DNA from: a virus
Lineage: Duplodnaviria; Heunggongvirae; Uroviricota; Caudoviricetes
Length of the DNA: 64,000 nucleotides
Reading direction: 5' to 3' (one strand)
Virus record (IMG/VR): IMGVR_UViG_2778261457_000003
Location: 2,217-66,216 of that record
In this document: positions 9,766 through 10,381 of the stretch, in pieces
Layout: every line of letters starts with the position of its first letter
Position numbering within the stretch: position 1 is the stretch's first letter
The notes under the pieces: generated by a model
The model's database searches: none
What the model was told of the DNA's origin: nothing
What the model saw: only the letters and a program-made list of their open reading frames with translations
Made by a program: the position numbers and the translations under genes

Positions 9766-10098
9766 TTAGTTACCGCTGATAGCGCGGTTGTAATCATTAA
9801 CGTTGCGATTCTTCCTGTTAATCCCCATCAGCATCGTTTCTGTATCGAGGATATACGCTGGCAGATCATCAAAATATTCACTGCTAAACTCTGGCATCCT
9901 GCACATAAATGCACTTTTTGGGGCAGGGTGGTTAACCTTTGTCGGCGTCGGCGTTAAATTCGCTGATCGACTCCCGGAGCAACCGCTGAGTGTCAGCAGG
10001 AATACGCTGGCGAACATTACCCGCCGCAACCAGTTGTTTCTGAACTTCAGCTTTTCGTTCCATTTGCCTGTCAGCATATTTGGCTTGTTCTGATTCAT
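9766..10098 (-). CDS. mlp: lipoprotein (signal peptide + lipobox LTLSGC, proline-rich mature part); candidate outer-membrane spanin-like component
   Basis: lipobox followed by TPTPTKVNHPAP; overlaps the 3' end of the upstream membrane/coiled-coil ORF in another frame; true start probably an internal Met. Confidence 0.5.
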   Translation of the reverse strand: MNQNKPNMLTGKWNEKLKFRNNWLRRVMFASVFLLTLSGCSGSRSANLTPTPTKVNHPAPKSAFMCRMPEFSSEYFDDLPAYILDTETMLMGINRKNRNVNDYNRAISGN

Positions 10099-10381
10099 TT
10101 TTCACTTCCTGGCTGTGAAAATGTTGCTCTGCTTTGTTCATCGTCTCAATGGTCTGGTTAAGATCCATTATTGACTTATCACGTTCCTTAACAGCCTGAT
10201 CAAGACTGCCAATTTTCTCCATGGCTTGCTTTAGCTGATGACGTTCCCATGCAAACCCAGCACCAACAAGTGCGCAAATCAGAACAAGAACACCAGTAGC
10301 AGCAAGTTTCTCCTTCAAAGACAAAGCTGTTTTTAACGTAGAAAAGAATGACATGTCTTCCTCCTGAAGAAAAATTATCAA
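9932..10381 (-). CDS. ppfA: N-terminally membrane-anchored coiled-coil protein; candidate inner-membrane spanin-like component
   Basis: hydrophobic segment GVLVLICALVGAGFAW followed by a charged coiled-coil region; 3' end overlaps the lipoprotein gene. Confidence 0.45.
   Translation of the reverse strand: MIIFLQEEDMSFFSTLKTALSLKEKLAATGVLVLICALVGAGFAWERHQLKQAMEKIGSLDQAVKERDKSIMDLNQTIETMNKAEQHFHSQEVKNESEQAKYADRQMERKAEVQKQLVAAGNVRQRIPADTQRLLRESISEFNADADKG

Follow-up and report, generated by a model that had tools for sequence, protein, structure and literature searches.

Overlapping ppfA and mlp genes as the predicted two-component spanin of a P1-like phage-plasmid

Why should two overlapping genes with the look of a spanin pair lie beside a replication origin, far from the endolysin gene? 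This question is raised by ppfA and mlp, which overlap on the minus strand near one end of the 64,000-nucleotide stretch analysed here (positions 2,217 to 66,216 of the IMG/VR virus record IMGVR_UViG_2778261457_000003; the whole stretch is called the window below). By sequence comparison the window is a P1-like phage-plasmid: over region 9000-11600 it shares 99.5% identity with Punavirus P1 records and 95.9% with reference P1 (NC_005856). On the P1 map it covers the stretch that begins at about 53.6 kb, passes the end of the record and stops at about 22.7 kb. In NC_005856, P1_gp064 is ppfA, described as 'possible periplasmic function', and P1_gp063 is mlp, a 'membrane lipoprotein precursor' with the RefSeq product name 'Rz-like spanin'. 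An earlier reading of the window without database searches (the sequence-only reading) had pointed out the spanin-like arrangement and had held that the pair could equally serve entry exclusion or envelope remodelling. Our analysis leads us to consider it very probable that ppfA and mlp encode the two-component spanin of a P1-type phage, with PpfA as the inner-membrane subunit (i-spanin) and Mlp as the outer-membrane subunit (o-spanin).

The assignment of ppfA and mlp as a spanin pair is not new. In Kongari et al. 2018, P1 gp064/gp063 stand in Table S1 as i-spanin and o-spanin of the class 'ovl' (overlapped); the table gives both sequences with the same ribosome-binding sites as those found here, and counts no periplasmic cysteine in the i-spanin and one in the o-spanin. 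Bednarek et al. (2022; PMC9025707) speak of P1 spanin genes that lie in 'yet another unlinked operon', away from lyz, and credit their identification to Summer et al. 2007; the labels for i-spanin and o-spanin are swapped in that paper. What the present analysis adds in support is the selection on both reading frames, the conservation of mlp in relatives down to 35% PpfA identity, the similarity of Mlp to the P2 protein LysC, and the operon shared with upfC and upfB. Membership was judged by the criteria of the Kongari 2018 spanin survey, and the pair presents a single N-terminal transmembrane segment in the i-spanin candidate, a lipobox without aspartate at position +2 in the o-spanin candidate, and adjacent overlapping genes.

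The open reading frame (ORF) of ppfA can be opened at TTG 10381 and ends at 9932, and this mechanical maximum is the 149-aa protein of the sequence-only reading. The ORF itself holds, while the length is likely to be shorter: the true start is most likely ATG 10354, as judged from the aligned gene starts, giving a gene at 9932..10354 (minus strand) and a product of 140 aa. We prefer this ATG because the relatives, the P1 record and the spanin table all keep it, together with the ribosome-binding site AGGAGG located 5 nt ahead of it (10360..10365, minus strand). The site reads CAGGAGG in all six of the relatives examined and is the one marked in the Kongari 2018 table. Kyte-Doolittle analysis of the product predicts one transmembrane segment, LAATGVLVLICALVGAGFA, at codons 17-35 (10250..10306, minus strand); its 19-residue mean is 2.35, and no other stretch exceeds 1.6. 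The remaining 104 aa are 36% charged, and between residues 37 and 80 the a and d positions of the heptads are 77% hydrophobic, so that the N-terminal transmembrane segment and charged coiled coil first described for this protein were both borne out. An AlphaFold2 model built with 17 homologues (mean predicted local distance difference test score, pLDDT, of 73) places one helix at residues 13-110 and another at 120-138, with an interruption at 111-119 between them. By analogy with known i-spanins, these features suggest that PpfA sits in the inner membrane as a type II protein, N-in/C-out, and that its periplasmic domain is helical. Its Cys27 sits within the transmembrane segment and is not conserved, and the number of periplasmic cysteines is zero.

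PpfA is 99.3-100% identical to the PpfA proteins of P1-type phages. In PHROG profile searches it matched phrog_89 'Rz-like spanin' (1.2e-25), as did 17 of 17 PpfA homologues, and it also matched phrog_739 and phrog_214, both annotated 'Rz-like spanin'. Relatives outside the P1 type are few. A tblastn search of the phage collection, with E values up to 5, returned only P1-type phages and Cronobacter phage JK004, and a PpfA profile run against 1.84 billion representative proteins gave 37 matches, nearly all of them fragments from P1-type elements, with three distant full-length relatives. For one of the three the locus was retrieved (L094), and this too belongs to a P1-like element and keeps the gene order; the locus of another distant relative, P0083, was not found in the viral contigs. 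Scanning genome contigs for PpfA relatives in ordinary lysis cassettes returned near-identical copies only. The PpfA family is therefore tiny, in agreement with the spanin table of Kongari 2018, where P1 is placed in a family of its own. A 5.8-kb contig labelled 'MAG: Bacillota bacterium' (JAFAFU010000017.1, L006) encodes a PpfA 100% identical to that of the window; the likeliest explanation is the mis-binning of a P1-like enterobacterial contig.

The second gene, mlp, lies at 9766..10098 (minus strand) and encodes a predicted lipoprotein precursor of 110 aa. Its ribosome-binding site, AGGAAG (10105..10110, minus strand), stands 6 nt ahead of ATG 10098, inside conserved Q-E-V codons of ppfA. 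The gene starts within the 3' end of ppfA in another frame, as had been read from the sequence at the outset. Residues 37-40 form the lipobox L-S-G-C (9979..9990, minus strand), with predicted lipidation at Cys40, from which a mature part of 71 aa would begin. Cys40 is followed by Ser-Gly-Ser, so the residue at +2 is serine and not aspartate, the inner-membrane retention residue. The signal sequence, at 39 aa, is unusually long; it has a basic n-region of 26 aa with a net charge of +6, followed by the hydrophobic stretch, and the Kongari 2018 table gives a LipoP cleavage site at position 39. The signal peptide and lipobox that had been proposed thus stand, while the description of the mature part as proline-rich is only moderately apt: it has 6 prolines in 71 residues, 4 of these within the first 25. 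A second cysteine, Cys66, is the single invariant periplasmic cysteine in the relatives.

Mlp matched phrog_30284 'Rz-like spanin' at 3.5e-78 and phrog_456 'Rz-like spanin' at 2.7e-5. A six-frame scan of the 64-kb window for ORFs combining a signal sequence with a lipobox returned mlp and one obviously spurious match; mlp is the sole credible lipoprotein-signal ORF in the window. Mlp-like proteins are rare in databases, with only 28 found among 5.8 billion entries. The gene is also systematically miscalled in public data. MH422554 carries a 46-aa 'Rz1' fragment that begins at an internal MCRMPEF (2267-2407 in our locus L002), and metagenome gene calls give fragments of 46-52 aa (at about 4431-4589 in contigs L089, L091 and L092). 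Within the frame, alternative starts exist at TTG 10029 and ATG 10017, the extension region being 10015-10098 (codons 1-28). The upstream ATG and its ribosome-binding site are kept in all relatives, and an internal ATG at the equivalent position is also present in four of the six.

The two ORFs share a dual-coding overlap of 167 nt in the +1 frame (9932..10098, minus strand), which encodes PpfA residues 86-140 together with the Mlp signal sequence and the first 16 mature residues; mlp extends 166 nt past the end of ppfA. We compared this arrangement across six divergent P1-like loci, namely Cronobacter phage JK004 (L004), the contigs L089-L092 from public assemblies and the 94-kb IMG/VR contig L094, whose PpfA is only 35% identical to that of the window. 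The overlap measures 164-179 nt in these relatives and is in the +1 frame every time. In all six, mlp is open and has an ATG, a ribosome-binding site, a lipobox (LSAC, LNAC or LNGC) and the second cysteine. Built from invariant Q-E-V/A codons of PpfA, the ribosome-binding site reads AGGAAG in members of the P1 clade, whereas the divergent clade has AGGAGG and an mlp ATG shifted 3 nt downstream; a start codon is nonetheless maintained there. The motif FMC(R/T)MP and the C-terminal half of Mlp are strongly conserved among the relatives.

Nucleotide identity to the divergent clade is 76-80% in the overlap, compared with 60-63% in the part belonging to ppfA alone and 70-79% in the part belonging to mlp alone. 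In the non-overlapping codons 57-110 of mlp, the variable sites at the first, second and third codon positions number 19, 12 and 42 respectively (of 54-55 each), and the ratio of nonsynonymous to synonymous substitution rates (dN/dS) is about 0.10-0.12 where dS is unsaturated. For codons 1-85 of ppfA the corresponding counts are 36, 32 and 72 of 85 each, with a dN/dS of 0.16-0.28. Both frames are under purifying selection. Within the overlap, variation falls mainly at third codon positions of ppfA (34 of 55) and so follows the ppfA frame; therefore the C-terminus of PpfA dominates the constraint there, with the Mlp signal keeping its general properties only. These data on both frames, on the mlp start and ribosome-binding site and on the second cysteine give a clean basis for the design of frame-specific mutants.

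A 110-codon ORF in an alternative frame is in itself unremarkable, and it might be argued that ppfA is the sole gene here and that the mlp frame is open by chance. Such a reading could appeal to the gene callers, which usually miss mlp or call a fragment of 46-52 aa, to the variation in the overlap that follows the ppfA frame, and to a dN/dS above 1 in the mlp frame across the signal region. It does not account for a dN/dS of about 0.1 over the 54 codons that lie clear of ppfA, with 42 of 55 third positions variable versus 12-19 at the first and second positions, nor for the retention of the ORF, of the ATG with its ribosome-binding site, of the lipobox and of the second cysteine down to 35% PpfA identity. 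It also leaves aside a start codon that has moved by 3 nt between clades and yet been maintained. On this comparative evidence the chance-frame explanation may be taken as effectively refuted, and we give it next to no weight. Because the lipobox scan, the conservation in six loci and the codon-position statistics agree, we regard mlp as a real gene.

Further evidence comes from P2. BLASTP paired Mlp with LysC, the o-spanin of P2: over 68 aa the two share 37% identity (E 1e-7), in an alignment that runs from the signal sequence through a Pro-Thr stretch to the second cysteine, with both the lipobox cysteine and the second cysteine aligned. A profile made from six Mlp sequences matched LysC with an hhalign probability of 86%. 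LysC itself matches phrog_456 and also the Mlp family phrog_30284 (5.4e-4), and the P2 i-spanin LysB matches phrog_89. A word-indexed search with Mlp gave no bridge to LysC. Taken together, these comparisons support a distant similarity between Mlp and LysC.

The position of the pair can be understood from its operon, in which the gene order is upfC-upfB-ppfA-mlp-upfA, followed by a hairpin, the origin iterons and repA. The first gene, upfC (11191..11475, minus strand), encodes a PAAR-type spike-tip protein (Pfam PAAR_motif 1.1e-5; phrog_281 2.5e-30), whose structural role as the spike tip is based on HHpred and cryo-electron microscopy (cryo-EM; PMC9024508, PMC12810830). Immediately upstream of ppfA, the ORF upfB (10394..11239, minus strand) encodes what the cryo-EM assignment (PMC12810830) identifies as the virion's 'tripod', which is joined to the spike tip. 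The last gene, upfA (9362..9754, minus strand), starts 11 nt past the mlp stop and belongs to phrog_1453, a family without assigned function; PF13876 is found in the corresponding protein of relatives. Directly after upfA, a terminator-like hairpin with a T-run (9333..9349, minus strand; a consensus match only) separates the operon from the iterons. The order upfC-upfB-ppfA-mlp-(upfA)-repA-parA-parB is kept in all divergent relatives. Since the upstream genes upfC and upfB encode virion components, we read this as a lytic-cycle operon that simply abuts the origin oriR, and by analogy its expression would be timed accordingly to lytic growth.

Some details of the neighbouring genes were also noted. 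The upfB ORF of the P1 record (281 aa) overlaps upfC by 49 nt, and a start at its residue 20 (MLEKDYQ, ATG 11182) is found in the PHROG profile alignment, in MH422554 (262 aa) and in the divergent relatives (258-260 aa). The start in the reference is therefore probably too far upstream, and the true start is probably at 11182, as these alignments indicate. The segment from mlp to repA is variable: contig L090 (4424-4977) is without upfA, and L094 (6608-8795) has about 2 kb of extra ORFs between mlp and repA, including one for a 318-aa protein of unknown function.

The location next to the replication origin and the distance from lyz, both observed in the sequence-only reading, were found to be correct. 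The origin iterons at 9103-9227 are about 540 nt from the mlp stop, with upfA between them. The gene lyz (61604..62161, minus strand), for the 185-aa signal-anchor-release (SAR) endolysin of P1, is about 51 kb from the pair in the window, in a region 99.8% identical to P1 10721-22721. It is followed by lydD and lydE (61292..61611, minus strand; pinholin and putative antiholin by the P1 annotation), of which LydD has been shown to be a pinholin (PMC9025707), and no spanin-like gene pair was seen after lyz-lydD-lydE at that locus. The genes lydA, lydB and lydC map to P1 30.4-31.5 kb, which the window does not include. The lysis operons known in P1, of which there are three, are likewise not linked to one another (PMC9025707). 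The position of the pair beside oriR is thus explained, because it belongs to the upfC/upfB operon and because the lysis operons of P1 are unlinked anyway.

The replicon next to the operon is a variant one. Iterons of the type TCGCGTATAGTCAAC occur at 7879-8140 and 9103-9227, with 21-nt spacing at the origin, and repA lies at 8142-9002. Nucleotide homology to NC_005856 is present only to the right of about 9232, and the adjacent repA and iterons do not align with the reference; the best match is the record MH422554, where RepA bears the annotation 'RepFIB replication protein A'. As the replicon is unlike that of reference P1, the element has a variant or swapped replicon beside a conserved spanin operon.

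The transcription of the operon is less clear. We derived a late-promoter pattern from LPlyz and LPdar, two promoters annotated as Lpa-dependent, and this gave 16 matches where 12.5 were expected and missed LPlyz itself on account of variable spacing, so that its failure to find an Lpa-type late promoter near the upfC operon is a weak negative. A generic scan of the operon region for sigma-70 promoters and terminators found nothing above background except the hairpin after upfA, and no recognisable promoter of the upfC operon was seen in 11476-11650. That region, upstream of upfC, overlaps the C1 operator ATTGCTCTAATAAATAT (plus strand, about 11556-11572) of the divergent dmt promoter. Perhaps C1 also controls the spike-tip/spanin operon.

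Several observations have to be set against the spanin assignment. Apart from the late promoter that was not found, the P1 record predicts only two weak sigma-70 promoters for ppfA, both inside upfB. The function of the P1 spanins was reported in 2022 as not verified experimentally (PMC9025707). In a genome-wide CRISPR interference (CRISPRi) screen (PMC10695390), efficiencies of plating of 1.3 and 1.2 were obtained for ppfA and of 0.24 and 0.19 for mlp, and both genes were rated non-essential for forming plaques; the value for lambda Rz in that study was 5e-4 in one assay out of two. The Kongari 2018 table attaches to Mlp the remark 'Too long signal sequence', and Mlp reaches 14.7 bits with the NF038368 P2_Rz1 model, for which the cut-off is 27. 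PpfA was considered as a homologue of LysB and rejected as such: BLASTP gave an E value of 57, the PpfA profile matched the single LysB sequence with a probability of 1%, and a profile-profile comparison with a 16-sequence LysB alignment reached 22%, over the transmembrane segment and first helix only. With the TIGR03495 LysB model PpfA scored 19 bits, where the cut-off is 92.75. The shared membership in phrog_89 is the only apparent sequence link between PpfA and LysB. Homology to lambda Rz/Rz1 was likewise rejected, with BLASTP E values of 0.26 for Rz and of 0.005 for Rz1, the latter confined to the signal region; periplasmic cysteines, present in lambda Rz, are absent from PpfA. Location in a lysis cassette, which is a usual and non-obligatory criterion for spanins, is not found for ppfA/mlp.

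Could these observations be better accommodated by a function other than lysis? The pair might form an envelope module expressed from the prophage, acting in the entry exclusion of related phages or plasmids or in the remodelling of the lysogen envelope, with no role in lysis. The oriR iterons are no more than 0.6 kb from it, repA and parAB are nearby, the promoters predicted for ppfA are of the sigma-70 and not of the late type, with no Lpa-type site found, and knock-down is tolerated in plaque assays, all of which would suit such a module. None of the four proteins tested matched a PADLOC defence or exclusion model, however, and Mlp resembles LysC, both proteins fall in spanin PHROGs, and the operon is shared with the spike-tip genes upfC and upfB, which are needed in lytic growth. 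The overlapped +1 architecture, conserved in all relatives, is moreover a hallmark of spanins. The proposal that this function was equally plausible is not supported; the operon context and the LysC similarity speak against such a function, and we consider it unlikely. Spanin PHROGs, the Mlp-LysC alignment and the listing of the P1 pair as an overlapped two-component spanin uphold instead the spanin-like character first recognised in the sequence.

That the operon is shared with spike-tip genes could also suggest that PpfA and Mlp assist the assembly or the working of the membrane-piercing apparatus of UpfC and UpfB, for instance in penetrating the envelope or in the maturation of the tail tip at the membrane. 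The order upfC-upfB-ppfA-mlp is indeed conserved and tightly packed in every relative examined, and UpfC and UpfB are spike-tip components. PpfA and Mlp are not mentioned in the virion proteome and knock-out paper (PMC9024508) or in the cryo-EM paper (PMC12810830), though, and a lipoprotein targeted by the Sec and Lol systems would end in the outer membrane of the producing cell and not in the virion. The similarity to LysC points to lysis, and adjacency to tail genes is uninformative, as the spanin genes of P2 also adjoin tail genes. We regard an accessory role at the spike tip as very improbable.

It is also conceivable that the P1 pair is dispensable for lysis or has an additional task, and that P1 would break the outer membrane in some other way. 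This idea arises because the CRISPRi effect is weak, because the genes are constantly in one operon with those for UpfC and UpfB, because a C1-controlled divergent promoter is nearby, and because Mlp has a long basic extension. Under it, the export of Mlp could be regulated or delayed, or an envelope function could be tied to the tail tip. We think it an improbable account as well, and retain the two-component spanin as our explanation of the pair.

As spanins, PpfA and Mlp would act along the lines of the lambda Rz/Rz1 paradigm, on which the topology, lipidation, sorting, complex formation, membrane fusion and expression timing proposed here are modelled. PpfA would insert in the inner membrane through its N-terminal helix, in the N-in/C-out orientation, and its helical part, about 104 residues long, would reach into the periplasm, with a long helix, a hinge near Gly112-Pro119 and a short conserved C-terminal helix. 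After export, Mlp would receive its lipid on Cys40 and be cut by signal peptidase II, and the serine at +2 would let the Lol pathway sort it to the inner leaflet of the outer membrane. The conserved C-terminal regions of the two proteins (PpfA 115-137; Mlp from about residue 61) may bind each other, and the resulting complexes would span the periplasm, threaded through the peptidoglycan. The PpfA helix at residues 37-110 would measure about 11 nm, estimated at 1.5 Å per residue, and together with the extended Pro-Thr stretch of Mlp this would plausibly bridge the periplasm. Once the holins LydA, LydC and LydD release or activate the SAR endolysin Lyz, the murein would be degraded, and the freed complexes could move sideways, cluster and collapse. 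Inner and outer membranes would then fuse, and the last barrier to virion release would be gone.

With the pair already present in the 2018 spanin table, in the 2022 lysis paper and in RefSeq as 'Rz-like spanin', the locus has little discovery value. A spanin pair distant from its endolysin is a documented peculiarity of P1, the lysis genes of which are spread over several operons. Most gene callers still miss or shorten mlp. The residual interest lies in the weak knock-down phenotype, in the conserved overlong signal sequence of Mlp, in the promoter, and in the function of the pair in P1, the classic transducing phage.

Compared with reference P1, PpfA is 99.3% identical (M45I) and Mlp 99.1% (N7S), and the overlap, the ribosome-binding sites, the operon and the neighbours are identical; the differences are strain-level substitutions and the replicon that does not align to the left of about 9232. 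A search of the PDB returned no solved structure of a relative. The closest parallel in architecture is P2, where LysB and LysC (NCBIfam TIGR03495 and NF038368) are likewise overlapped with the o-spanin in the +1 frame, the overlap being 146 nt in P2 and 167 nt here, and where the products are of 141 and 96 aa, against 140 and 110 aa for PpfA and Mlp. The spanin genes of P2 directly adjoin tail genes, as the P1 pair adjoins upfB and upfC. They also directly follow the holin and endolysin genes of P2, whereas the P1 pair is unlinked to its own. PpfA lacks counterparts of the LysB invariants W102, Y103, C120 and C126, which mark the C-terminal W/Y and Cys-x5-Cys region of LysB. In lambda, Rz and Rz1 belong to other families (phrog_13 and phrog_3198) than the best matches of PpfA and Mlp, Rz1 is wholly embedded in Rz whereas mlp only overlaps ppfA, and the genes stand in the S-R-Rz cassette, whereas the P1 pair is outside any lysis cassette. 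The list of parts is nevertheless alike, with a helical type II inner-membrane protein and a small outer-membrane lipoprotein that has prolines in an N-terminal stretch and is encoded in the +1 frame, and the predicted role in the last step of lysis would be common to lambda Rz/Rz1 and PpfA/Mlp.

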